Shown: positions 25,895-56,475, numbered from the stretch's first letter. The stretch: 58,586 bases of DNA from an uncultured Candidatus Saccharibacteria bacterium (GCA_964445905.1 CAYUNN010000010.1:1-58586); one strand, 5' to 3'. Program-made: numbers and translations. Notes: generated by a model from the letters alone, not told the origin.

Positions 25895-26470
25895 ATGATT
25901 TTAGTAATTGGATTAGGCAATCCTGGAGAAAAATATAAAGAAACTAGGCATAATATTGGCTGGATAGCTTTAGATGAATTTAAAAAGAAAAATAATTTTG
26001 GAGAATGGAACGAAAATAAAAAGACAAGGTCAACGATAAGTAAAGGGATTATTAATGAAAAGGAAATATTATTAGCAAAGCCCGTTACTTTTATGAATCT
26101 TTCTGGAGAAGCAATCGTAAAAATAATATCTTATTATAAAATAATCCCAGAAAAAATAATTATTGTTCATGATGATATTGATATTGAAATTGGCAAGATA
26201 AAAATAATAGAAAAAAGAGGAGCAGCTGGTCATAAGGGTGTTCTTTCTATAACCAAAATACTTAAAACAAAAAACTTCATTAGAATAAGAGTTGGGATAA
26301 AACCAAAAGGCAAAAAGCCGTCTAGCGCAGAAAGATTTGTTATTTCTCAATTTAATCAAAAAGAAAGAAAAATCTTAAAAGAAACGGTAGAAAAAACAAT
26401 AAAAGCAATAGAAATAATCTCGGAGGAAGGAATTCAAAAAGCAATGAATATTTTTAATAAAAAAAGCTGA
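25895..26470 (+). CDS. pth: Peptidyl-tRNA hydrolase
   Basis: GLGNPG, TRHNIG, FMNLSG, HDD and GHKG motifs. Confidence 0.96.
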   Translation: MILVIGLGNPGEKYKETRHNIGWIALDEFKKKNNFGEWNENKKTRSTISKGIINEKEILLAKPVTFMNLSGEAIVKIISYYKIIPEKIIIVHDDIDIEIGKIKIIEKRGAAGHKGVLSITKILKTKNFIRIRVGIKPKGKKPSSAERFVISQFNQKERKILKETVEKTIKAIEIISEEGIQKAMNIFNKKS

Positions 26471-26488
26471 AGCAAAAAATTGCTTCAG
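26467..26488. terminator. Hairpin between convergent pth and the small membrane gene
   Basis: CTGAAGCAA-AAAA-TTGCTTCAG. Confidence 0.65.
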
Positions 26489-26496
26489 ATAAAATA

Positions 26497-26703
26497 CTAC
26501 ATCTTTGAATCAGAGTAAATTCCCGCTATTACAAGAATTAAGCCAGAAATAACAAAAGCGACACTAAGAAGAATAAGATACATTCGATCAAACGTCCCAA
26601 ATTTAGCAAAGAGAAGAGCTCCCGAAACAACGAGAATTATGCCGAAATATATCATCGTAATCAACCTTCTGTTATACTTATTCCCTGTTTTCAATACAAT
26701 CAC
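26497..26703 (-). CDS. Small two-TM membrane protein
   Basis: Two hydrophobic helices; strong SD AGGAGGTG, so the real start is probably TTG at 26694. Confidence 0.65.
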   Translation of the reverse strand: MIVLKTGNKYNRRLITMIYFGIILVVSGALLFAKFGTFDRMYLILLSVAFVISGLILVIAGIYSDSKM

Positions 26704-26778
26704 CTCCTTTTTTAAAAGCTTACTAATTAAGCATAATAGAATTTAAAAAAAAGTAAAGAAAAAAAATAGGGAATTTCC

Positions 26779-27435
26779 CTATATATTTTTTAATTTTTTT
26801 TGCGTGTCAAAGAATCTTTTTATAGCAGTATAATATCCTCCTGCTGCAAATAGGATCGTCATCCAACCTAGCAGGGTAAATTTTATTGAACTAATGCCTA
26901 TTTCACTCCACCAAACGGAACTGAGAATGAGTACGATTATCATGATGAATAATCGCCAGACTCTACCAAAACCCCCGTAATTCCGCGACAAGCCCACTGT
27001 TTTTGACAAAGCGCCAAAATTTGAAGTTAAGGACACTCCCCCAACAGCAAGAGCGACTATAGGCCAGTTAATAAACCCCCCAAACCCAACTGCTAAAATT
27101 AAAACCAGGTCAGCAACACGATCCAGGCTATGGTCAAGATAGTCTCCCGACTTACTCTGAACATTTCTTATTCTTGCTAAATTACCATCTAGAGCATCAA
27201 GCAAAGAACTTAGCGCTAGAAATATACCGGCAATAAAGATTATGATTCTAGACTGGTAAAAGCCAGCTAAAAAAATAAAAGCGGCGGTAATAAAAGCAAG
27301 AAGAAGAGAAATTATTGTCAGACCATCAGGAGTAATAAAAGAAGGAATTTTTCTACTAATCTTTTCTAAAATTCTATCACTTTTTTCTCTTGACGACGCA
27401 ATGCTTTCTTTCTTAATTTCTTTCTTTCCAAACAT
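26779..27435 (-). CDS. CDP-alcohol phosphatidyltransferase, archaeal (archaetidyl-phosphate synthase)-like
   Basis: TPDGLT; DALDGNLAR...GDYLDHSLDRVAD (DxxDGxxAR...GxxxDxxxD); RNYGG.GR; C-terminal TAIKRF. Confidence 0.88.
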   Translation of the reverse strand: MFGKKEIKKESIASSREKSDRILEKISRKIPSFITPDGLTIISLLLAFITAAFIFLAGFYQSRIIIFIAGIFLALSSLLDALDGNLARIRNVQSKSGDYLDHSLDRVADLVLILAVGFGGFINWPIVALAVGGVSLTSNFGALSKTVGLSRNYGGFGRVWRLFIMIIVLILSSVWWSEIGISSIKFTLLGWMTILFAAGGYYTAIKRFFDTQKKLKNI

Positions 27436-27467
27436 TTACTTCTCTCCTATCTTTATTTTAAAATAAC

Positions 27468-27608
27468 TTTTTTATTCTTAAAGCTACCTGCGAGCGATTA
27501 GAGCCCTTGAACATAAGTTCAAAAACTCTAAATCTTCTAGCTACTTATTAAGTTAAGGAGGGATTACTTAATTTTTGCTACTCTCAGATAGCTTTAAAAA
27601 CAAAAAAA
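27468..27608 (-). ncRNA. Putative structured cis-regulatory RNA (three-way junction with a C-rich anti-SD loop)
   Basis: Long closing stem plus two hairpins. About 7 G-U pairs exist only on the minus-strand transcript. It lies between a consensus promoter and the SD of the CDP-alcohol transferase gene. Confidence 0.6.
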
Positions 27609-27629
27609 CTTTACTTCAAGCTATTATAT

Positions 27630-27657
27630 ATTATAATTAATTAAATATTTTTGTCAA
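27630..27657 (-). promoter_or_regulatory. Consensus sigma70 promoter TTGACA-16-TATAAT
   Basis: TTGACA at 27657..27652 and TATAAT at 27635..27630. Confidence 0.8.
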
Positions 27658-27739
27658 GGTAAAATATTTTTCTCCACTATTTTGTTTTTGCAAAAATTGC
27701 AATAATCAGTTAAAAAGAAAAAATTAACTTTTTAAAAAA

Positions 27740-29773
27740 ATGGAATTAGTTATAGTCGAATCTCCCATAAAAGCAAAAACGATCCAGAAATTCCTGGGCT
27801 CCAGCTTTAAAGTTCTTTCTTCTTATGGACACGTAAGAGATTTGCCGAAGAATAGATTCGGAGTAGATTTAGAAAGAAACTTTCAGCCTAAATATGTTGT
27901 TCCCCAAAAAGCTAAAAAAGTTGTTAAAGAAATCAAAACAGAATTAAAAAAAAGTGAAAACATAATTCTAGCTACCGATGAAGACCGAGAAGGAGAAGCG
28001 ATAGCATGGCATCTTTATCAAGCCCTAAATTTGAAAGAAGATAATTGTAAAAGAATTGTCTTCCACGAAATTACTGAAAAAGCAATTAAAAGAGCACTAG
28101 AATCTCCGAGAAAAATTAACATTAATTTAGTTGACGCTCAACAAGCGAGAAGAATACTTGATAGAATCGTAGGATATAAATTATCTCCTTTCCTTTGGAA
28201 AAAAATAGTAAAAGGATTATCTGCAGGAAGAGTTCAATCGGTAGCAGTGAGAATAATAGTTGACAGAGAAGAAGAAATTAAAAAATTTGAACCTCAGGAA
28301 TATTGGCAGATTAAAGCTATTCTTAACAAAGAGGAAAAGGATTTTGAATCTCTGCTTTCAAGGAAGAAAAACGAAGAGATACCAAAGCTTGGTATAAAAA
28401 TAAAAGAAGAAGCTGAAAAAATAATAGAAAATTTAGAAGGAGCAGAATATAAAGTAGAAGAAATAAAAAAGAAAGAAATAAAAAGAAATCCTCTTCCTCC
28501 TTTTACTACTAGCACTCTCCAGCAAGAAGGCTGGAAAAGGTTCCGAATGCCAGCAAAATTTACCATGAGACTGGCTCAAAATTTATACGAGAAAGGACTT
28601 ATTACTTATCACCGAACCGACTCTTTGAATCTGTCAGAATCATCTCTTTCTGACGCTAAAAAAATTATTATTAAAAATTATGGGAAAGATTACTGGCCTG
28701 GATTTAAAAGAAAATATAAGGCGAAAGGAAGAGCCCAAGAAGCTCATGAAGCTATTAGACCAACAAATTCCAGTAAAGAACCAGGGAGAATAAAACTAGA
28801 CAGTAATCAATTTAAGATATACAAGCTTATTTGGGAAAGATTTATTGCCTGTCAAATGAGCCAAGCGGAATTTGATGCCACTCAAGTTAAAATTAAGGCA
28901 AAAGAGTATATTTTTAAAACTTCTGGTCAGATTTTAAAATTTGACGGATTCCTTAGGGTCTATTCCCAAAAATTTAAAGAAAGCGAACTGCCAGACTTGA
29001 AAAAAGATGATGTCCTTAAATTGATCAAGTTAGAAAAATCTCAACATTTCACCAAGCCCCCGGCAAGATTTACTGAAGGCTCTTTGATTAAAGAATTAGA
29101 AAAAAACGGGATTGGAAGACCCTCCACTTATGCTCCAGTTATTGCTACTATAAAAGAAAGGAATTATGTAAATAACGACGAGCAAAGAAGATTTTGCCCA
29201 ACTGAAATAGGAATAATGGTTAATGATCTTTTAGTAAAACATTTTCCGCAAATAGTAGATATTAAATTTACAGCAAAAATGGAAAAAGATTTAGACAAAA
29301 TAGCTCAAGGAGAAAAAGAATGGACAAAAATTATAAAGGATTTTTACAATCCATTTGAAAAGAACTTAATTAAAAAACAAAAAGAAGTAGCCAAAAAGGA
29401 AACAGACAAAAAAACAGAACAAAAATGTCCAAAGTGTGGCTCTCCTTTATTAATAAAATTGGGCAGGTTTGGAAAATTTTTTGCTTGTTCTAATTTCCCC
29501 GAATGTAAATTTAGCAAGCCCTTGCCTCCCCCAAAAATAGGAGTGAAGTGTCCTGAATGCAAAGAAGGAGAAATGGTTGAAAGAAAAACTAGAAAGGGAA
29601 AAATATTTTTCGGATGCAATAAATTCCCTGAATGTAAGTTTGCTACTTGGGACAAACCTATTAATAGACTATGTCCCAAATGTAAAAAATTATTAGTAGA
29701 AACAAAAAGCGGGCAGATAAAATGCTCAAGCAAAGAGTGCAATTTTAAAGAAGAAAAAATTGACAAAAGCTAG
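27740..29773 (+). CDS. topA: DNA topoisomerase I
   Basis: IVESP, ATDEDREGE, SAGRVQS, catalytic ITYHRTDS and GIGRPSTY; C-terminal Zn ribbons. Confidence 0.97.
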   Translation: MELVIVESPIKAKTIQKFLGSSFKVLSSYGHVRDLPKNRFGVDLERNFQPKYVVPQKAKKVVKEIKTELKKSENIILATDEDREGEAIAWHLYQALNLKEDNCKRIVFHEITEKAIKRALESPRKININLVDAQQARRILDRIVGYKLSPFLWKKIVKGLSAGRVQSVAVRIIVDREEEIKKFEPQEYWQIKAILNKEEKDFESLLSRKKNEEIPKLGIKIKEEAEKIIENLEGAEYKVEEIKKKEIKRNPLPPFTTSTLQQEGWKRFRMPAKFTMRLAQNLYEKGLITYHRTDSLNLSESSLSDAKKIIIKNYGKDYWPGFKRKYKAKGRAQEAHEAIRPTNSSKEPGRIKLDSNQFKIYKLIWERFIACQMSQAEFDATQVKIKAKEYIFKTSGQILKFDGFLRVYSQKFKESELPDLKKDDVLKLIKLEKSQHFTKPPARFTEGSLIKELEKNGIGRPSTYAPVIATIKERNYVNNDEQRRFCPTEIGIMVNDLLVKHFPQIVDIKFTAKMEKDLDKIAQGEKEWTKIIKDFYNPFEKNLIKKQKEVAKKETDKKTEQKCPKCGSPLLIKLGRFGKFFACSNFPECKFSKPLPPPKIGVKCPECKEGEMVERKTRKGKIFFGCNKFPECKFATWDKPINRLCPKCKKLLVETKSGQIKCSSKECNFKEEKIDKS

Positions 29774-29795
29774 ATACTTGCTAATTTAAATTTAA

Positions 29796-29883
29796 GCCGG
29801 AGTGCTGGAATTGGCAGACAGGGTGGACTCAAAATCCACTGAGGTTACCCCTCGTGTGGGTTCAACTCCCACCTCCGGCACCA
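29796..29883 (+). tRNA. tRNA-Leu (anticodon CAA)
   Basis: GCCGGAG/CTCCGGC acceptor stem, GTGGA-CTCAAAA-TCCAC anticodon arm, long variable arm, GTTCAAC T loop and encoded CCA. Confidence 0.95.
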
Positions 29884-29887
29884 AAGT

Positions 29888-29910
29888 AAAAACCCCTTCC
29901 AAGGGGTTTT
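29888..29910. terminator. Bidirectional intrinsic terminator after tRNA-Leu
   Basis: AAAACCCCTT-CC-AAGGGGTTTT. Confidence 0.85.
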
Positions 29911-29927
29911 ATTAATTGTAAAAAGTT

Positions 29928-30437
29928 TTATTTTTTAGAAAACTTATTAAAAATAATAATTACAATAAAAGCAGATAATAAGCCAACCAAGATTCCACCT
30001 AAAATATCGGAAGGCCAATGAACGCCAGAATATATTCTGCTCACAGCCATAGCAAAAGAGAGACAAAAGAATAATAATCCTATTTTTTTATTATAATAAA
30101 AAACAACCGCTGAAATAGCAAAGAAAAAAGAAGTATGAGCGGAAGGAAAAGAACTAGTGTTAAGACGATCTATCAAGACATTAACATTATTTTCGACAAA
30201 AGGACGCGGTCTTTCCCAAATAATTCTGAATAATTCTGTAATTAATCTAGATAAAAAAGCAGCCGTGAATGCCATTAAAGTCAATCTCCCATATTTTTTA
30301 AAGTTAAAAAATAGAAATAAAAATAACGAAGCAACTAAAATAAAAGGAAGATATTGAGCTAAAAAAATCCCTGCGCCGTCAAAAGACAAGGTTTCTGAAG
30401 TAAAATTATTAATCTTTTCGAATAAAAAAGCATCCAT
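29928..30437 (-). CDS. PAP2-family lipid phosphatase (BcrC-like undecaprenyl-diphosphatase)
   Basis: RPRP, SFPSAH and SRIYSGVHWPSD motifs. Confidence 0.9.
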   Translation of the reverse strand: MDAFLFEKINNFTSETLSFDGAGIFLAQYLPFILVASLFLFLFFNFKKYGRLTLMAFTAAFLSRLITELFRIIWERPRPFVENNVNVLIDRLNTSSFPSAHTSFFFAISAVVFYYNKKIGLLFFCLSFAMAVSRIYSGVHWPSDILGGILVGLLSAFIVIIIFNKFSKK

Positions 30438-31063
30438 TAGTTTTCTTTTCTCTTTAATGCCGAACCAATTCTTAAAACACGAGGTTCAGGCTTAGTTAGG
30501 TCTATCACGGTTGAAGGTTTGTTTATTTCTAAGTCGCCAGCGTCAATAATCAGATCGGGTTGATATTTTTGATTTTTAAATTGATCGACAACCTTATTGA
30601 TTTTAACCGAACTCGGATTGCCAGAAATATTAGCTGAGGTTCCGGTTAATGGTATTTTTAATGCTTCTGAAAGACTATTTATTAAGTCATAATCAGGAAC
30701 TCTAAGACCAATCGTTTCTTCTTTGCCAGAAATCATCAAAGGGAGAGGACATTTTTCTTTTCTTCTCAACACAGCTGTTACTTTCCCAGGCCAAACTTCA
30801 TTTAAAAGAGTTTCTTGAGCTGAACCAATGACAGCATAGTCTTTAGCTGATTCCATGTTTTCAACAAAGATCGAAAGCGCTTTTTCTTTTTGTCTTTTTT
30901 TAATTTTAAAAACTTTTTCTATCGCTTTTTGATTGGTAGCATCAGCTATTAATCCGTAAACTGTATCTGTAGGACAAATTATAACCCTACCTTCTTTGAT
31001 AAGGTCCGAGATTTCTTTAACTAGCTCTTTTAAACTTTTAGAACCATATTTTATAACTCTCAT
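30437..31063 (-). CDS. tsaC: Threonylcarbamoyl-AMP synthase (TsaC/YrdC)
   Basis: PTDTVYGL, KKR, WPG, GTSANISG and PSTVID motifs. Confidence 0.93.
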   Translation of the reverse strand: MRVIKYGSKSLKELVKEISDLIKEGRVIICPTDTVYGLIADATNQKAIEKVFKIKKRQKEKALSIFVENMESAKDYAVIGSAQETLLNEVWPGKVTAVLRRKEKCPLPLMISGKEETIGLRVPDYDLINSLSEALKIPLTGTSANISGNPSSVKINKVVDQFKNQKYQPDLIIDAGDLEINKPSTVIDLTKPEPRVLRIGSALKRKEN

Positions 31064-31111
31064 TTCTTTTAATTAACGCATATTAATATTTACCAATTAA
31101 TCTTGCTTTAG

Positions 31112-32044
31112 TCAAACATTTTTAATTTTAAAATCAACATCATTCTGTCCCCTTGCTTTAGCTGAATAATATTGAGTTAATTGCTTTGCTGTCTTCATTA
31201 TACCATCAGAAAGTCTTTTTTTGCCATAATTTCTAACTAAAGTAACTGGTCCTGAATAATTCTTCATTTCAATCAAAACATCGTTCTTCCGGATAAGACT
31301 ATTTATTCTTTTATTTTCTCTTTCGTCTCTGCCAACAATTATTTTCACCTTCTCCTTCCAAAAATGCCGACCATATTTTAATAATTCAACATCATTTTTA
31401 TTACATTTTGGATAATTAATAAAAAGCCCCATAAGTCTTTCCCCGAATTCAAAATCGGTTAATAAACATCCTCCTGCAGGACTTGGATATTTTTTGATCT
31501 TAAATTTTTCTGCTAACTCTATCTGTTTTTTCCTCTGTCTGCCTGAAATATCAAAAAGATTAATTCTATTAACAAAACCTCTTTTTTCTGGAATAGTTTC
31601 TTCGAGTATTTTTGCCGAGAGAGGACGCAAAAGAAGCCCATTCAAAGAAGATTCTTTTTCAACAACCCGAAGAGATTTTATATTTTGAGACATCGGTCTT
31701 TGACCTAAAACTTCTCCCGTAGCAATAAAGTCAAAATCCTCCTCCTTCATGTATTTTTTTGCCTCTTTAAGCATAAAAATATGACAATCAATGCAAGGAT
31801 TCATAGATTTACCGTACCCATGTTGAGGAGATTTAATTAGTTCTAAGTGTTTTTTTGAAAAATCAATCACCTTTAGATCAATACTGTTTTCTTTTGCTGA
31901 TTTTTTGGCCTGGGCTTCATCAAAGAAACAACTCTTAAAAGTAAGAGCTCTTACTTTTATTCCTTGTTCTTCTAAAATTTTCACCGCCAACATAGAATCT
32001 AGCCCTCCCGAGAATAAAACTAATGCTTTTATTTCTTTACTCAT
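31112..32044 (-). CDS. PP-loop tRNA thiouridylase-like protein (ThiI/MnmA-like, no THUMP domain)
   Basis: FSGGLDS, NPCIDCH, GEVLGQRPMSQ and PAGGCLLT motifs. Confidence 0.85.
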   Translation of the reverse strand: MSKEIKALVLFSGGLDSMLAVKILEEQGIKVRALTFKSCFFDEAQAKKSAKENSIDLKVIDFSKKHLELIKSPQHGYGKSMNPCIDCHIFMLKEAKKYMKEEDFDFIATGEVLGQRPMSQNIKSLRVVEKESSLNGLLLRPLSAKILEETIPEKRGFVNRINLFDISGRQRKKQIELAEKFKIKKYPSPAGGCLLTDFEFGERLMGLFINYPKCNKNDVELLKYGRHFWKEKVKIIVGRDERENKRINSLIRKNDVLIEMKNYSGPVTLVRNYGKKRLSDGIMKTAKQLTQYYSAKARGQNDVDFKIKNV

Positions 32045-32076
32045 AGAATTATTTCAGTCTATCATTTAGAATAAAT

Positions 32077-32104
32077 AAAAAAAGCACTCAAAAAAATGAG
32101 TGCT
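32077..32104 (-). terminator. Intrinsic terminator of the GGGP synthase gene
   Basis: AGCACTCA/TGAGTGCT stem followed by a U-run on the minus strand. Confidence 0.75.
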
Positions 32105-32112
32105 ACAATATT

Positions 32113-32865
32113 TTAATATTCTTTTACCGCTCTAATTATTTTTTCTAGTTGATTGTTTTCCCTTCTTTCAACCACGTTTCCGGTTACAATAATATCTGCT
32201 CCTGCTTTTAATTTCTCTCTGACCATTTCAGGATTTTTTATTCCTCCTCCTACAACTAAGGGAATATCTACATTCGTTTTTATTGTCTTTATCATCTCGT
32301 TAGATATCGGTTTCGGTGCACCAGAGCCCGCTTCAAGATAAAGTAGCTTAGCTCCAAAATATTTTGTATAAAGAGCGTATTGAAGAGCTTTTCGATAATC
32401 ATCTCTTTGTAATAATTCAGCTTTACCTACCTGCCCCGCTTTCATTCCCGGACTTATTATAAGATAACCTGTAGAAATTGGCTCTAATCCCATGGTTTTT
32501 ATGTGCAACGTTCCTTCTACTGCCTCTCTGATTACATATTGAAGATCTTTTGAATTAAGCAGGCTCATAAAAAGAACCCCGTCTGCCAAAACATTTAAAG
32601 CGCTTGCCTCAGAAGGAAACAGAATAATAGGTATCTGTCTTTCTTGAGATTTCCTGACTCTCTTCTTTATTTCCACAATGGTTTCTCCAATTATAGATTT
32701 TTCAATTGGAGACGACCCGCCAATTAAAATAGCATCTGTTCCGGCAGAAAAAGACTCAAAGGCAATCTCGCCTGCAATTTGCGGGAGCTGTTTGTCTGGA
32801 TCAATTAGAGTAAAATGCAGCTTCTCTTCTTTTATTTTCTCTGACAAAAATTTCCAAATTTTCAT
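32113..32865 (-). CDS. Geranylgeranylglyceryl phosphate synthase (GGGPS/PcrB family, group II, archaeal-like)
   Basis: HFTLIDPDKQ, ILIGGS, ILFPS, FMSLLNS, YLEAGSGA, VVGGGIK and AGADIIVTG motifs; SD AGGAGG. Confidence 0.92.
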   Translation of the reverse strand: MKIWKFLSEKIKEEKLHFTLIDPDKQLPQIAGEIAFESFSAGTDAILIGGSSPIEKSIIGETIVEIKKRVRKSQERQIPIILFPSEASALNVLADGVLFMSLLNSKDLQYVIREAVEGTLHIKTMGLEPISTGYLIISPGMKAGQVGKAELLQRDDYRKALQYALYTKYFGAKLLYLEAGSGAPKPISNEMIKTIKTNVDIPLVVGGGIKNPEMVREKLKAGADIIVTGNVVERRENNQLEKIIRAVKEY

Positions 32866-33038
32866 ATTATGCCTCCTATTAAAAAGGTTAAAGCTGTCAT
32901 TATTGAGAAAAAATAATTCAAACTTATTTTCTCGGTAATAAAATCAGCTACGACCGCCGTCCCCTCTACGAAACAATCCGAGGAACAATTTATTTCTATA
33001 AGTGCTTTAATTTTTTCTATCATTTTTTCACCCTTCAT
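32862..33038 (-). CDS. Possible small upstream ORF (53-58 aa) coupled to GGGPS; may instead be a structured leader
   Basis: Open frame from ATG 33038 or 33023 to a TGA overlapping the GGGPS ATG (ATGA); hydrophobic C-terminus. Confidence 0.35.
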   Translation of the reverse strand: MKGEKMIEKIKALIEINCSSDCFVEGTAVVADFITEKISLNYFFSIMTALTFLIGGII

Positions 33039-33079
33039 TTTATTTAATTTAAAAGTGCTAGATTCTTTCTATTCATTAT

Positions 33080-33715
33080 TTAAGGCCTTGTCAAGATTAC
33101 TTCTAATTCTTTTAAATTTCTTATTGAAAAATCAATCTTGTCATTATCTGAATAATCTGTATACCTTCCCTCTCCCCTGTTTATCCTTATCGTAATTATT
33201 TTCGAAAAATCTTCTTTAACTTTTGATAAAATTTCAGGACTATCGTCAATAAAAATTGCTTTTTCTTCTTTTTTTAAAATCCTTGCTAAGCACTCGTTCT
33301 TATTATTCTTTTTTATTATAAATACATCTTTAAAATAATCCTTGATACCTGATTCGTCTATTTTTACTTTAGAAAAGCATCCGTTTTCTCCTCCATAAGA
33401 AATTATATAAAAAGTAAATCTATTCTTAAATTTTTCTAGAAATAACGGAACATCAGAATAAAGAAAATCAGAAGATCTCTTTGTTATTTCGTTTAAATTT
33501 TCTCTCATTTTTTGAATAGAAATATCAGAATTATTCTTAACAATAATTCTAAATTGTTCTTCTGGATCATAAGCCCTTCCTTTTCTTTTTGATTCTTGAA
33601 AACTACTATTAAATAATTTCTCGTTTACTCCAAGAACTTTAAAATCTTTTTTTGTTTCAAGATAAAGCTTTTTAGTAGAATAAAGGGTGTGATCAAAATC
33701 AAAAATTAATTTCAT
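33080..33715 (-). CDS. HAD-superfamily hydrolase
   Basis: IFDFDHTL (motif I), IISYG and FIDDS (motif IV). Confidence 0.88.
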   Translation of the reverse strand: MKLIFDFDHTLYSTKKLYLETKKDFKVLGVNEKLFNSSFQESKRKGRAYDPEEQFRIIVKNNSDISIQKMRENLNEITKRSSDFLYSDVPLFLEKFKNRFTFYIISYGGENGCFSKVKIDESGIKDYFKDVFIIKKNNKNECLARILKKEEKAIFIDDSPEILSKVKEDFSKIITIRINRGEGRYTDYSDNDKIDFSIRNLKELEVILTRP

Positions 33716-33777
33716 AAAATATTATTTAATAATCTATCTTATTTATAGTTTATTGTTATCGACCCTAAAAATCAAAT

Positions 33778-33804
33778 AAAAATACTAGCGGGAAACTAGT
33801 ATTT
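33778..33804 (-). terminator. Intrinsic terminator after the glmU-like gene
   Basis: AAATACTAG/CTAGTATTT stem. Confidence 0.6.
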
Positions 33805-33827: not shown

Positions 33828-35081
33828 TTATTTCTTTTTTGCTATGCTTTGAGCCTTAGTATAAAAAATTGTATTGTCTTTTATATTATTTAGCACAATA
33901 GAATGAGGTCCAATTTTACAGCCAGAACCAATCAAAACGCCAGGCATTAAAGAAACGTTGATTCCTATTCTTGTTTCTTTTCCCACTATAACACCTAATT
34001 GGTTTAGCCTGGTATTTATTGCTTTCTCCTTAATAACTGATTTTACCTCTTCTCCGTCAATCCTTACATTAGCAGTAACAGTTCCCGCACCAACCTTACA
34101 TCCCCCGCCAAAAATAGAATCCCCGAAATAGCCAGAATGGGTATGAGTATCTTTTTGAAAAATACACCGAGTCACTTCAGCAAAACCACCAATCAAACAA
34201 CCTTCTTCTATGTTGGAATATTCTCTTATTAAAGCATTATTCCCAACTATGCAATTATCTCCGATATAAGAAGGACCTTTAATCACAGCTCCTTCAAATA
34301 TTTTAACATTTTTTCCTATAAAAACCCTGCCTTTAACCTGAGCTGAATCAAGAATCTTAACCGAACTATGAATGCTCTTTTCTAAAAAATTATCAAACAA
34401 ATAATTTTTCATATTGAATAAGTGCCAAGGATATTTTAAAGAAAAAGTTTTCTTATCAGTTCTTAAAACTCTTACATCTTTTTCTTTAGCATATAACAAT
34501 AACGCTTCTTCAAGAGAATACATGTGAACCGGTACCTTTCTAAGATATCCAAAAAATTCTTCTGGGAGGAAATAAGTCCCTACTACTTTCAAATTAGAGG
34601 GCTCTTTTCCCTTCTCAGGCTTTTCTACCAAATCTAAAACCTTATCTCCTTTTATTTTTAAAATTCCATAAAGCCAGGGATTCTCAGTTTCTCCCGCAAG
34701 CAATATTAATTTATTTTTATCTTTTTTAAATTTATCAATTATTAAATCAATATGTTCTTTAATATCAATTCTTTCTGCGTTAAGAACAAAAAATTGACCT
34801 TTAACAATTTTTTCTGCTTTAAGTATTGCTTCTCCAGTCCCTTTCGGCTCAGACTGAATAACATATTTAATAGGAATCTTGAAATTGTAATTATTTAACT
34901 CCCTTTCAACTTCTTTGCCCGGGCCTTGAACAATGACCACCTCTTTTATCCCTTTTTCTTCTAAACTAGTAATAAGCCAATAAACCAATGGCTTCCCCAT
35001 AATTTTAATAAGGGATTTATGACGTCCATTAATTGGCCAAAATCTTGAAGAAGCTCCTGCTGACAATATTATTGCTTGCAT
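33828..35081 (-). CDS. glmU: Bifunctional sugar-1-phosphate nucleotidylyltransferase/acetyltransferase (archaeal-type GlmU)
   Basis: [28 protein letters not shown] and YPWHL motifs; C-terminal hexapeptide repeats. Confidence 0.85.
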
Positions 35082-35090
35082 AAAAATTAA

Positions 35091-36068
35091 TTAAATTAAA
35101 GATTTTAAAATTTCATTAACTTTCTGATAACTATGTTCTATTATTTTATCATTAATTAGTAAGTTTTTTCCAATAAATTTATTCCCAGGCAAATCTTCGT
35201 CAAACCTCACTGCATCTATTAATTCAGAATGATTCTCTTTGTAATAATTAATGTTTTTTGAATTAGGAAAGTAATTATTAAATATTACATAATCAACAGC
35301 TAAAGACAAGTAATTTTCTATCTCTTTTGTAAAATCTAAAACAGAAAAACCAGACGTCTCTCCTTTTTTTGTCATTAGATTACAAATAAAAACCTTTCTT
35401 GCCTTACTTTCTAATATCGATTCTTTGATTCCATCAGCTAGCAAACAAGGAATTAAAGAAGAATAAAGATCCCCGGGGCCAATAATAATTAAGTCAGCTT
35501 CTTTAATTTCTTTTAAAACGGGAGGAAAAGCTTTTACTTTTGGCTCAACAAAAACTTTTTTTATTTTAAGATTATGGTTATGTTTTTTGGGAACATCAAT
35601 TTCGTCTTCACCTATAATTTTTTCACCATTTTCTAAAACAGCACAAACATTACTTTTCTCAATTGTAACGGGCAAGCATTTGCCTTTTATCTCTAAAAAA
35701 TCATGCAAAACTTCCAACACTTTGCCATAATTATCAAAAGTTCTTTCAAGAGAAGCTATAAAAACATTGCCAAGATTATGTCCTTTATGTCCTCCTTTAA
35801 AAGTTTTTCCTCCAAACCTAAAATTAAAAAGATCTTTTTTCCATTCTGGAGCTTTAGATAAAGCAAGAAGGTGCCTTCTAATATCTCCTGGAGGCAAAAT
35901 ATCAAACTCTTTCCTAAGTTCTCCGCTAGATCCTCCACTATCAAACATAGAAGAAACAAAAACAACCTCAATAGAATTGCTTATTAAATCGGGCAAAACT
36001 GCTTTAGTCAGAGCGTTCCCCCCTCCGAGACAAACTATTTTTTTATTTTTTTTTATACAATTCTTCAT
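35091..36068 (-). CDS. yvcK: YvcK/GlmR (CofD-like) UDP-GlcNAc-binding protein
   Basis: CLGGG, DSGGSSGELR, PPGDIR, HNLGN, GPGDLYSS and NLMTKKGET motifs; start placed at ATG 36068. Confidence 0.9.
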   Translation of the reverse strand: MKNCIKKNKKIVCLGGGNALTKAVLPDLISNSIEVVFVSSMFDSGGSSGELRKEFDILPPGDIRRHLLALSKAPEWKKDLFNFRFGGKTFKGGHKGHNLGNVFIASLERTFDNYGKVLEVLHDFLEIKGKCLPVTIEKSNVCAVLENGEKIIGEDEIDVPKKHNHNLKIKKVFVEPKVKAFPPVLKEIKEADLIIIGPGDLYSSLIPCLLADGIKESILESKARKVFICNLMTKKGETSGFSVLDFTKEIENYLSLAVDYVIFNNYFPNSKNINYYKENHSELIDAVRFDEDLPGNKFIGKNLLINDKIIEHSYQKVNEILKSLI

Positions 36069-36140
36069 TCGTCTATATAATATAATCTTAACTCTTACAG
36101 AATAAGATATCAAATAAAAAAGCTTAGAAATAATTCTAAG

Positions 36141-56100: not shown

Positions 56101-56451
56101 GGGGATGTTTGCGATTCGACAGAAATTAAATTTCTCGAATAATCAAGCTGAGTACCCTGAAATCTCATAAAACTTTCAGGAAAAGAATAAGTAACAACTT
56201 ATCAGAACAACCAGCTTTAGCAGTTGCCTAAAGCCATCCATTTTAGTGATTCTCGATAACTAAAATAGATGCTATATATCGAGATACAGATAATTGTTCT
56301 TGTCTCAGAATGATTATCTAAATTCATGAGACTAGGAATTCTATATTTTTTACTTGTTTTTCAATGGAATTCCGAAAAACAAAACAAGTTAAGCTTGTAT
56401 AATTATTCAAGAATAAATTTCTGGACGAGGGTTCAATTCCCTCCATCTCCA
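56101..56451 (+). ncRNA. ssrA: tmRNA
   Basis: 5' GGGGATG..GATTCGAC and 3' GACGAGGGTTCAATTCCCTCCATCTCCA; tag frame 56193..56231 NNLSEQPALAVA*; follows smpB. Confidence 0.93.
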
Positions 56452-56475
56452 CAAAAATATTAAAATAAAAAAAGT

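Follow-up and report, generated by a model that had tools for sequence, protein, structure and literature searches.

The split between bacterial and archaeal membranes is among the deepest in biology, and its known natural exceptions are few: bacteria of the Fibrobacteres-Chlorobi-Bacteroidetes (FCB) group and the PcrB enzyme of Bacillus. Excerpts of Villanueva et al. 2021 (PMC7852524) describe close homologues of geranylgeranylglyceryl phosphate (GGGP) synthase, GGGPS, and of digeranylgeranylglyceryl phosphate (DGGGP) synthase, DGGGPS, together in one Candidatus Parcubacteria genome, and tie the bacterial genes to the TACK group. In the excerpts of Coleman et al. 2019 (PMC6431249), orthologues of sn-glycerol-1-phosphate (G1P) dehydrogenase, G1PDH, occur only in Fibrobacteres and Cloacimonetes among the 12 FCB phyla surveyed, Parcubacteria appear in a table of phyla, and all three archaeal genes in one genome are named only for Firmicutes, Actinobacteria, and Fibrobacteres. 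Papers on archaea-associated Patescibacteria describe lipid synthesis as lacking in the portions available. Here we analyzed a stretch of 58,586 nucleotides (GCA_964445905.1 CAYUNN010000010.1:1-58586; hereafter the window) that carries an intact GGGPS gene and, 4.7 kb away with housekeeping genes in between, a CDP-alcohol phosphotransferase gene. The window constitutes contig 10 in a genome (G000) of 567,903 bases and 10 contigs, rated 96.8% complete, whose source looks like a very small, reduced, host-dependent bacterium. Protein relatives of the genome are labeled Parcubacteria or Minisyncoccales in public records, and a placement in either is suggested only by these NCBI names. With a probability of roughly 60%, we propose that the family of this bacterium has inherited a mosaic gene set of archaeal origin for making an archaeal-type glycerophospholipid, a route and function that we infer from the protein families involved.

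The GGGPS gene (32113-32865, minus strand) encodes 250 amino acids and exceeds the cut-offs of PF01884 (179.1 bits, cut-off 23.9), TIGR01769 (227.7, cut-off 161.55), and NF003198 (272.2, cut-off 247). Its motifs are LIDPDKQ at residue 20, FMSLLNS at 99, PGMKAGQVGKA at 139, and YLEAGSGA at 176, and an AGGAGG lies 7 nt before the ATG. The protein has Y134, Y176, E178, and T228 together with GSG (180-182) and GGGI (206-209); the parts of PMC9385802 consulted describe a conserved catalytic Tyr/Tyr/Glu (Y134/Y178/E180 in the Methanothermobacter enzyme, acting in G1P stereospecificity and catalysis), a group II Thr, and phosphate-binding loops. By these signatures the window protein is an intact group II GGGP synthase, as the first-pass annotation of this DNA had recognized, and is predicted to transfer a C20 chain to G1P. 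Solved structures rank 6nke first (205 bits), followed by 6jo3 (197) and the Methanothermobacter enzyme (169), with the Flavobacterium group IIb enzyme 4jej at 138.5, PcrB at about 55, and the Archaeoglobus group I enzyme at 46 bits; the organisms behind these entries are those given in the same parts of PMC9385802. An identity as PcrB (group Ib) was rejected (NF003197, 58.4 versus 260; solved PcrB, 55 versus 205 bits for 6nke). At position 32602, inside the gene, contigs from the two public sequencing runs that best hold this region carry T where the window has G, on a single contig each at a depth of about 30.

Both database searches and trees connect this protein to Thermoplasmatota, which are its nearest named relatives at about 50% identity. 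Scanning species-representative genomes with the pattern AD[AYG][VIL][FL]FM[SMT]L[LM] gave at least 594 stretches, 593 of which were confirmed; the best 80 of these 593 are all archaeal, at 39-51% identity, within a match list that excludes relatives of the window genome and a pattern that may miss bacterial homologues. Fifty-one of the best 80 carry the label Thermoplasmatota, and the others are Methanobacteriota, Aenigmatarchaeota, Hydrothermarchaeota, Hadarchaeota, or unclassified. (An unpublished genome, G819, enters only the count of 80 loci and the counts 12/80 and 37/44, and none of the conclusions depends on it.) A word-based search across 5.8 billion proteins returned two GGGPS matches at 67-70%, a few at 54-56%, and thousands at 48-53%, the named ones being Thermoplasmata, Thermoplasmatales, or Euryarchaeota apart from a single "Candidatus Parcubacteria bacterium" at 48%.

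The careful GGGPS tree comprised 60 rows, 41 taken from the 80 archaeal loci to cover the clades of a first tree and 19 bacterial. Here the sequences of the window's family and those of three further families of its order fall among Thermoplasmatota. A second GGGPS type, found in three other families of the order within IdsA-GGGPS clusters, some of which also hold HMG-CoA reductase, is sister to Thermococci (95/92*), and one further sequence stands apart; the topology places at least two separate GGGPS acquisitions within the order. The second type was seen at loci L009, L010, L131-L133, and L135-L137, with HMG-CoA reductase adjoining in two genomes and with the conserved YLE replaced by FLD or FTD in both sequences of this type that were aligned. 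One 5,760-bp contig labeled "uncultured Thermoplasmatales archaeon" (L106) has its GGGPS on a long branch inside a clade of the bacterial sequences (99/92*); it may be a bacterial contig placed in the wrong bin, or come from an archaeon closely related to the donor.

Relatives of this bacterium pair GGGPS with the enzyme of the next step. A UbiA-family gene lies directly beside GGGPS in G001, G003, and G006; a partial UbiA match abuts GGGPS at the contig end in G021, and the UbiA gene of G027 lies nearby on the opposite strand. Against the DGGGPS model NF009521 (cut-off 296), the UbiA genes of G001, G003, G006, and G027 reach 250-286 bits, and that of G001, a genome of the same genus as ours, scores 162 bits against the solved DGGGPS 6m31. 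The same arrangement, DGGGPS directly upstream of GGGPS, occurs in 12 of the best 80 archaeal loci, with up to 42% identity to the G001 protein; 11 of the 12 come from Thermoplasmatota (DHVE2, Cuniculiplasma, and a Thermoplasmata clade), the remaining one is from an unclassified archaeon, and G819 is among the 12.

At the place of DGGGPS the window holds only 214 bases. A 58-codon open reading frame (ORF) there (32862-33038, minus strand) has its stop and the GGGPS start overlapping in an ATGA, and it retains both ends, N-terminal and C-terminal, of the 274-amino-acid DGGGPS at the same position in G001. Their local alignment scores 73, a value reached by none of 300 shuffles (29.3 +/- 4.9), and the DNA upstream of the remnant's start also aligns with G001. 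A 1,099-bp contig from an independent sample (run X3) matches 32827-33800 without difference. While tblastn with the DGGGPS of relatives missed this remnant, direct translation and alignment of the spacer revealed it. The first-pass annotation had described long structured leaders on both archaeal-type genes; for the 214 nt before GGGPS, folding does not exceed that of shuffles (z = -0.58; 56/200 shuffles as good), and this supposed leader is the DGGGPS remnant, because its translation matches both ends of the G001 protein.

No full-length DGGGPS was recognized elsewhere in the genome: its only full-length UbiA, encoded on contig 3, retains both Asp-rich motifs (NNYFDVEID and DYEED) and scores far below the DGGGPS cut-offs. 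Searching the ESM Atlas with this protein gave generic UbiA clusters only. The one orthologue found within the family is in G004 (63% identity), whose GGGPS likewise has no adjacent DGGGPS. G000 and G004 are the two family genomes that have GGGPS and no adjacent DGGGPS yet do have a UbiA gene, and both share this second UbiA type, a pattern that suggests that the contig-3 type may have replaced the lost DGGGPS. With DGGGPS reduced to a remnant, the second ether bond would be made by the contig-3 UbiA or not at all, the latter leaving mono-ether lipids.

The CDP-alcohol phosphotransferase gene (26779-27435, minus strand; 218 amino acids) scores 55.6 bits on PF01066 against a cut-off of 22. Its catalytic motif D80-x2-DG-x2-AR-x8-G-x3-D-x3-D is intact at residues 80-105 (DALDGNLARIRNVQSKSGDYLDHSLD), and RNYGGFGR lies at residue 151. 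The best NCBIfam model is archaetidylinositol-phosphate synthase (NF040950), with the model for phosphatidylinositol-phosphate (PIP) synthase at 48.3 and that for PgsA at 29.2 bits; an identity as PgsA was rejected (TIGR00560, 29.2 versus 109.1; solved PgsA 7drj, 20 bits). By this likeness, the head group attached would most likely be inositol phosphate.

Thermoplasmatota are again the nearest named relatives, here at about 42% identity. The word-based search found only 7 transferase proteins at E <= 1e-8; an exhaustive search found 177 representatives at E <= 1e-10, and the two of its ten best clusters with named members are both "Thermoplasmata archaeon." Against 44 archaeal genomes, Cuniculiplasma was best (42% identity, E = 1.5e-36), followed by other Thermoplasmatota at 1e-15 to 1e-31 and by Thermococci, Methanoperedens, and Hydrothermarchaeota at 1e-12 to 1e-18, while matches in other families of the bacterium's own order reached 1e-6 to 1e-10. 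A careful transferase tree (38 rows) unites the seven family sequences in a single clade (97/91*), which joins 20 Thermoplasmatota rows and one labeled Methanobacteriota at 100/98* and is separate from the CDP-alcohol transferases that other families of the order carry. An archaeal origin with a likeness to Thermoplasmata, proposed for both proteins when the sequence was first read, is supported, and neither protein groups with the ordinary bacterial PcrB or PgsA.

Unlike the spacer before GGGPS, the 225 bases before the transferase gene fold better than any of 200 shuffles (z = -6.24), and here the predicted structured leader was confirmed. The RNA (27468-27607, minus strand) has a closing stem of 27 pairs and two hairpins, one of 7 pairs whose loop contains an invariant CCCUCC, the other variable, with 14 pairs and most of the compensatory changes. 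An alignment of 11 sequences (10 distinct) has 50 predicted pairs with 97.4% of cells paired; 16 pairs change on both sides, a number reached by none of 500 shuffles (9.6 +/- 1.9), with 1-3 in slid controls. The RNA is better conserved than the protein that follows it (mean column identity of 73-82% versus a protein identity of 41-47% outside the genus). It is single copy in the genome and lies directly before the transferase gene in 7/7 family genomes and in 5/5 metagenome matches (exact matches to the core pattern). Just upstream, the sequence reads as a promoter-like TTGACA-16 nt-TATAAT (27623-27657, minus strand), and both hexamers also precede the leader in six relatives. Rfam 15 yielded no family at gathering score, and at E <= 1 only the archaeal sRNA41 (RF02905; 23.9 bits, gathering 45, E = 0.08) and a microRNA model, the sub-threshold sRNA41 likeness covering the CCUCC hairpin. 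The leader is a conserved, covarying structured RNA outside the Rfam families.

Because the CCCUCC loop is complementary to the downstream Shine-Dalgarno site, we propose that the leader is probably a translational switch of the transferase. Strong sites of this kind are uncommon in this genome, as had been noted at first reading: in a crude count over the 512 called ORFs of G000, GGAGG or AGGAG precedes the first start codon in 13 (2 of them contig-end artefacts) and, allowing any start in the first quarter of an ORF, in 49, GGGPS and the transferase included, or about 2% and 10%, respectively. One metagenome contig (L205) has a HAD-superfamily gene followed directly by a ThiI-like gene, with no GGGPS or DGGGPS between them, and keeps the transferase and its leader; it reflects either a more advanced stage of loss or another use for the transferase.

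The first-pass annotation was right that G1PDH, DGGGPS, and CarS are outside the window. The set is larger than two genes that would re-head host lipids, and much of the remaining pathway lies elsewhere in the genome, where other contigs carry G1PDH-like, UbiA, CdsA-like, and IdsA-like genes. The G1PDH-like protein, encoded on contig 3, scores 74.4 bits on PF13685 (Fe-ADH_2; cut-off 28), and its GGGKAID, PTAPSHDG, ICDLLSN, SGSEH, and LHGQ align with the matching stretches of the solved G1PDH 4rgq. It shares 58-60% full-length identity with the sole G1PDH homologue of two Aenigmatarchaeota genomes and 30-37% with those of a further 41 archaeal genomes; of the 45 searched, 2 gave no match. Aenigmarchaeota make up most of the named matches at 48-60%, alongside one from Parcubacteria and one from Minisyncoccales. 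In a quick tree (69 rows), long starred branches of about 1.5 changes per column on either side set the divergent clade apart from canonical G1PDH, and the family nests inside rows labeled Aenigmatarchaeota, labels that come from metagenome bins. In L169 and L170, both Aenigmatarchaeota, the sole G1PDH homologue belongs to the divergent clade, in one case with an internal TAA, and both genomes carry GGGPS. Literature searches found no assayed member of this clade. GGGPS, DGGGPS, and the transferase appear to come from Thermoplasmatota-like donors, and the G1PDH-like gene from an Aenigmatarchaeota-like donor.

An IdsA-like short-chain prenyl-diphosphate synthase (239 bits) lies on contig 4, and a CdsA-type cytidylyltransferase (PF01148, 148 bits), whose solved relatives are bacterial CdsA only, on contig 2. 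The latter was considered and rejected as CarS (NF003114, 38.6 versus 148; PF01864, 22.7 versus 22 and overlain by PF01148). Family searches of the 568-kb genome did not detect PlsC, PlsY, ketoacyl synthase, GHMP kinase, HMG-CoA reductase, or IspH, each of which the same search recovered in control genomes; the genome thus has no recognizable bacterial route to glycerolipid and no recognizable route to isopentenyl diphosphate. Comparing 1,790 ORFs from the archaeal loci with the genome by tblastn gave housekeeping matches only and no further shared lipid genes, the two promising matches being a phosphoglucomutase and an ABC ATPase.

The genome appears to hold candidates for most steps of an archaeal route, which we infer as follows with respect to enzyme activities, substrates, precursor import, head group, and membrane-lipid products. 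The G1PDH-like enzyme would turn dihydroxyacetone phosphate into sn-glycerol-1-phosphate, and the IdsA-like synthase would assemble a prenyl diphosphate from imported C5 units. GGGPS would then form the first ether bond and a UbiA-family enzyme the second, in this genome the divergent contig-3 UbiA if that bond is made at all. A family-specific CdsA-like enzyme would activate the product with CTP, and the transferase, its translation probably controlled by the leader, would attach the polar head group.

The distribution of these genes was surveyed in 41 genomes, 7 from the window's family (our own included) and 34 from other families, one each. GGGPS is present in 6/7 family genomes and, above the Pfam cut-off, in 3/34 others; the G1PDH-like gene in 6/7 and 0/34; the transferase in 7/7 (41-100% identity), with only weak matches in 8/34; the CdsA-like gene in 7/7 and 1/34; the IdsA-like gene in 7/7 and 13/34; and HMG-CoA reductase in 0/7 and 3/34. 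Order-wide, GGGPS occurs in 19/401 genomes and is concentrated in a few families (5/6, 2/2, 6/6, 1/1, and 1/2), while it was found in none of seven large families (five of them 0/22, the other two 0/19 and 0/15), and none of 400 other genomes across the phylum gave a match at E <= 1e-20. The GC content of the window is even (0.28-0.36), and that of GGGPS and the transferase (0.367 and 0.370) is ordinary for the genome (mean, 0.329 +/- 0.035). Gene order is shared with four relatives and with metagenome contigs, running nucleotidyltransferase-HAD-DGGGPS-GGGPS-ThiI-like-Sua5 in G001. Given ordinary GC, kept synteny, and GGGPS in 6/7 family genomes, the transfer is old, neither recent nor confined to this organism; the archaeal-type genes are inherited within the family and are common to a few other families of the order.

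Several findings weigh against the reading that this family inherited a working archaeal-type glycerophospholipid pathway. The body of DGGGPS has been lost by deletion in this genome, and the contig-3 UbiA scores 44.8-66 bits on DGGGPS-type models with cut-offs of 269-353 and has no relative at E <= 0.01 among solved structures. The transferase reaches 115.6 bits on NF040950 (cut-off 180) and the G1PDH-like protein 139 on its best model, NF002022 (cut-off 413); like these two and UbiA, the CdsA-like protein falls below the NCBIfam curated cut-offs. That protein is also of the bacterial CdsA type and not CarS, and E. coli CdsA prefers phosphatidic acid and works poorly on DGGGP, according to the parts of PMC9385802 consulted. 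As UppS is present, the IdsA-like enzyme could serve cell-wall carrier synthesis alone; a wall served by UppS and an undecaprenyl-diphosphatase-like PAP2 protein also needs prenyl units, so the IdsA-like gene is non-specific evidence for a lipid pathway, and 9 of the 13 other-family genomes with an IdsA-like gene are without GGGPS. No source of isopentenyl diphosphate was found in the seven family genomes tested for HMG-CoA reductase. A motif screen of the 512 ORFs (N-terminal dinucleotide-binding motif, 280-520 amino acids), too crude to establish absence, gave no candidate for geranylgeranyl reductase or inositol-phosphate synthase, the N-termini of its 13 hits looking like FtsZ, Mur ligases, thioredoxin reductase, GAPDH, and similar proteins. 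The set is patchy even within the family, whose patchy genomes are 94-97% complete: G001 is without the G1PDH-like gene, G005 without GGGPS, and G002 and G005 without any UbiA. Finally, an approximately unbiased test of one origin for the order's Thermoplasmatota-type GGGPS was borderline (p = 0.045, for a group named after seeing the tree), so that a single entry into the order is neither shown nor clearly rejected.

A bolder form of the proposal is that the family wholly swapped its bacterial lipid pathway for an archaeal one drawn from at least two donors (Thermoplasmatota and DPANN), with membranes of G1P-based isoprenoid ethers, in this bacterium either mono-ether (lyso-type) or completed by a new UbiA-type second-step enzyme, and with head-group synthesis governed by a new class of structured RNA. 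We put this forward tentatively and regard it, taken as a whole, as doubtful.

One alternative is that the genes serve salvage only. Isoprenoid lipids of an archaeal host, or their breakdown products, would be re-activated and re-headed by the CdsA-like enzyme and the transferase with no de novo synthesis, GGGPS and the G1PDH-like enzyme re-attaching scavenged prenyl chains to a fresh backbone. The failure to find mevalonate or methylerythritol phosphate (MEP) pathway markers fits such a lifestyle, as do the loss of DGGGPS and the failure to find bacterial lipid genes among those searched, and donors that are archaea make contact with archaea plausible. Yet the G1PDH-like gene (6/7 in the family) and the chain-elongating IdsA-like synthase (7/7) point to assembly from small precursors, and no host is known for this organism. 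Salvage also overlaps our preferred explanation, which already assumes imported C5 units. We consider it unlikely that salvage accounts for the gene set.

It is less probable still that the pathway yields a minor product outside the membrane, as with PcrB of Bacillus, in which a prenylglyceryl phosphate would act as a surface-polymer anchor or carrier and the transferase would serve an unrelated lipid or glycoconjugate. Bacteria that have GGGPS-family enzymes and no archaeal membranes are known (PcrB; PMC6431249 and PMC9385802, in the parts consulted), loss of DGGGPS may leave the product mono-ether, and the separation of GGGPS from the transferase by housekeeping genes would suit unrelated roles. 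Against this, the group II GGGPS is far from PcrB (55 versus 205 bits), the GGGPS of relatives is paired with a true DGGGPS, and the genome has no other recognizable route to a glycerolipid backbone.

That the locus is a decaying relic, in which a pathway that worked in an ancestor is now being lost and the remaining genes have no present role, strikes us as very improbable. The DGGGPS remnant, the patchy presence across the family, and the metagenome relative that has no GGGPS and in which the HAD and ThiI-like genes directly adjoin would all be expected of decay. However, the transferase and the GGGPS, G1PDH-like, and CdsA-like genes are all intact and keep their catalytic motifs in a 568-kb genome, where unused genes usually vanish; the transferase retains its conserved, covarying leader; and G000 and G004, which have GGGPS without adjacent DGGGPS, have the second UbiA type in common.

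Contigs in the Logan collection, built independently from public runs, span 26400-28189 and 29269-33800 with one difference; the two best-holding runs may be the source sample, and a third run, from another sample, covers 32827-33800 without difference. Joints with sides of only 20-27 letters were attributed to repeats or to other organisms. Mixing can occur when small-celled bacteria and archaea in one sample yield metagenome-assembled genomes, and the "Thermoplasmatales" contig L106 groups with bacterial sequences, but an assembly or binning artefact has a negligible chance here, as bacterial housekeeping genes flank the archaeal-type genes on a 58.6-kb contig with even GC, the same gene order recurs in four relatives and in metagenome contigs, and independently built contigs cover the junctions. 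The contig, whose integrity had been flagged for checking, is not chimeric.

The locus is not a gene island. Between GGGPS and the transferase (27740-32044, mixed strands), the ORF list, Pfam, and Rfam identify ordinary bacterial genes for topoisomerase I (plus), a tRNA (29796-29880, plus), a Sua5/YrdC-family protein (minus), and a 310-amino-acid protein (31112-32044, minus) with an N-terminal ThiI/PP-loop ATPase-like part and a C-terminal NFACT-R RNA-binding domain, which adjoins GGGPS in relatives too (62-71% identity). Rfam gave one other match at gathering score anywhere in the window, a tmRNA gene (56101-56454, plus; 128.9 bits). The first-pass annotation had placed two phosphatases correctly and listed them with the lipid genes. 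The PAP2 phosphatase (29928-30437, minus; PF01569, 75.2 bits) has as its best NCBIfam model undecaprenyl-diphosphate phosphatase (NF008813; 76.6 bits, far below the cut-off of 229) and probably acts in cell-wall carrier recycling, outside the archaeal set. The HAD-superfamily hydrolase (33080-33715, minus; weak Pfam and NCBIfam matches, below the Pfam cut-offs) is only loosely tied to the cluster: it lies upstream of DGGGPS-GGGPS in G001 and G003, is absent from that place in G006, and is retained in the metagenome relative without GGGPS. Upstream of the HAD gene are a nucleotidyltransferase with a hexapeptide-repeat domain (33828-35081, minus), in the same place in relatives at 65-80% identity, and a CofD/YvcK-family protein (35091-36113, minus; 227 bits). 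A 68-amino-acid hydrophobic ORF 3' of the transferase gene (26497-26703, minus), for which a Pfam scan returned no family, is possibly not a gene.

The membrane source of ultra-small, host-dependent bacteria is a standing question, which the present finding makes testable in one lineage recognizable by its genes. If the genes work as predicted, the only glycerolipids that these bacteria make for themselves would be of archaeal type. Apparent donors among Thermoplasmatota and DPANN point to gene flow between two ultra-small prokaryote groups and their neighbors, and the leader RNA is a candidate for a new cis-regulator of lipid head-group synthesis. Among the papers listed by literature searches, only the two Villanueva texts join candidate phyla radiation (CPR) names with GGGP or DGGGP synthase, one other listed paper dealing with Woesearchaeota, and as far as such searches reach, no family-wide set including a G1PDH-like gene, no Thermoplasmatota/DPANN affinities, no DGGGPS remnant, and no leader RNA of this kind are in print.

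The closest described enzymes are the group IIa GGGPS of Thermoplasmatota (6nke and 6jo3; PMC9385802, in part), which share with the window protein about 50% full-length identity, the Tyr/Tyr/Glu, the group II Thr, and the GSG and GGGI loops. Some Thermoplasmatota carry DGGGPS directly upstream of GGGPS, as do the relatives of this bacterium. Our host differs in being a bacterium with a 568-kb genome, in which DGGGPS is a remnant and mevalonate markers were not found. The divergent G1PDH-like clade of Aenigmatarchaeota matches the window genome's protein at 58-60% over its full length, unlike canonical archaeal G1PDH (30-37%). For the transferase, archaetidylinositol phosphate synthase and bacterial phosphatidylinositol phosphate synthase offer the counterparts, through the best NCBIfam model and the shared CDP-alcohol transferase motif; its Thermoplasmatota orthologues also match NF040950 best and, at 142-161 bits, are likewise below the cut-off of 180.

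Bacterial parallels are of two kinds. Bacillus, with PcrB and AraM, similarly pairs a G1P-forming dehydrogenase with a GGGPS-family prenyltransferase, but PcrB is a heptaprenylglyceryl phosphate synthase of group Ib, whereas the window protein belongs to group II. FCB-group bacteria (Ca. Cloacimonetes and others; PMC7852524, in part) share co-located archaeal-type GGGPS and DGGGPS. The affinity of the window's family is instead to Thermoplasmatota, and unlike most FCB phyla the family has a G1PDH-like gene. FCB bacteria are expected to retain an ordinary bacterial lipid pathway, whereas PlsC, PlsY, and ketoacyl synthase were not found in the window genome. Set beside these systems, the case belongs to a kind already known, that of bacteria carrying archaeal lipid genes, with a predicted gene set that reaches from the G1P backbone to the head group.

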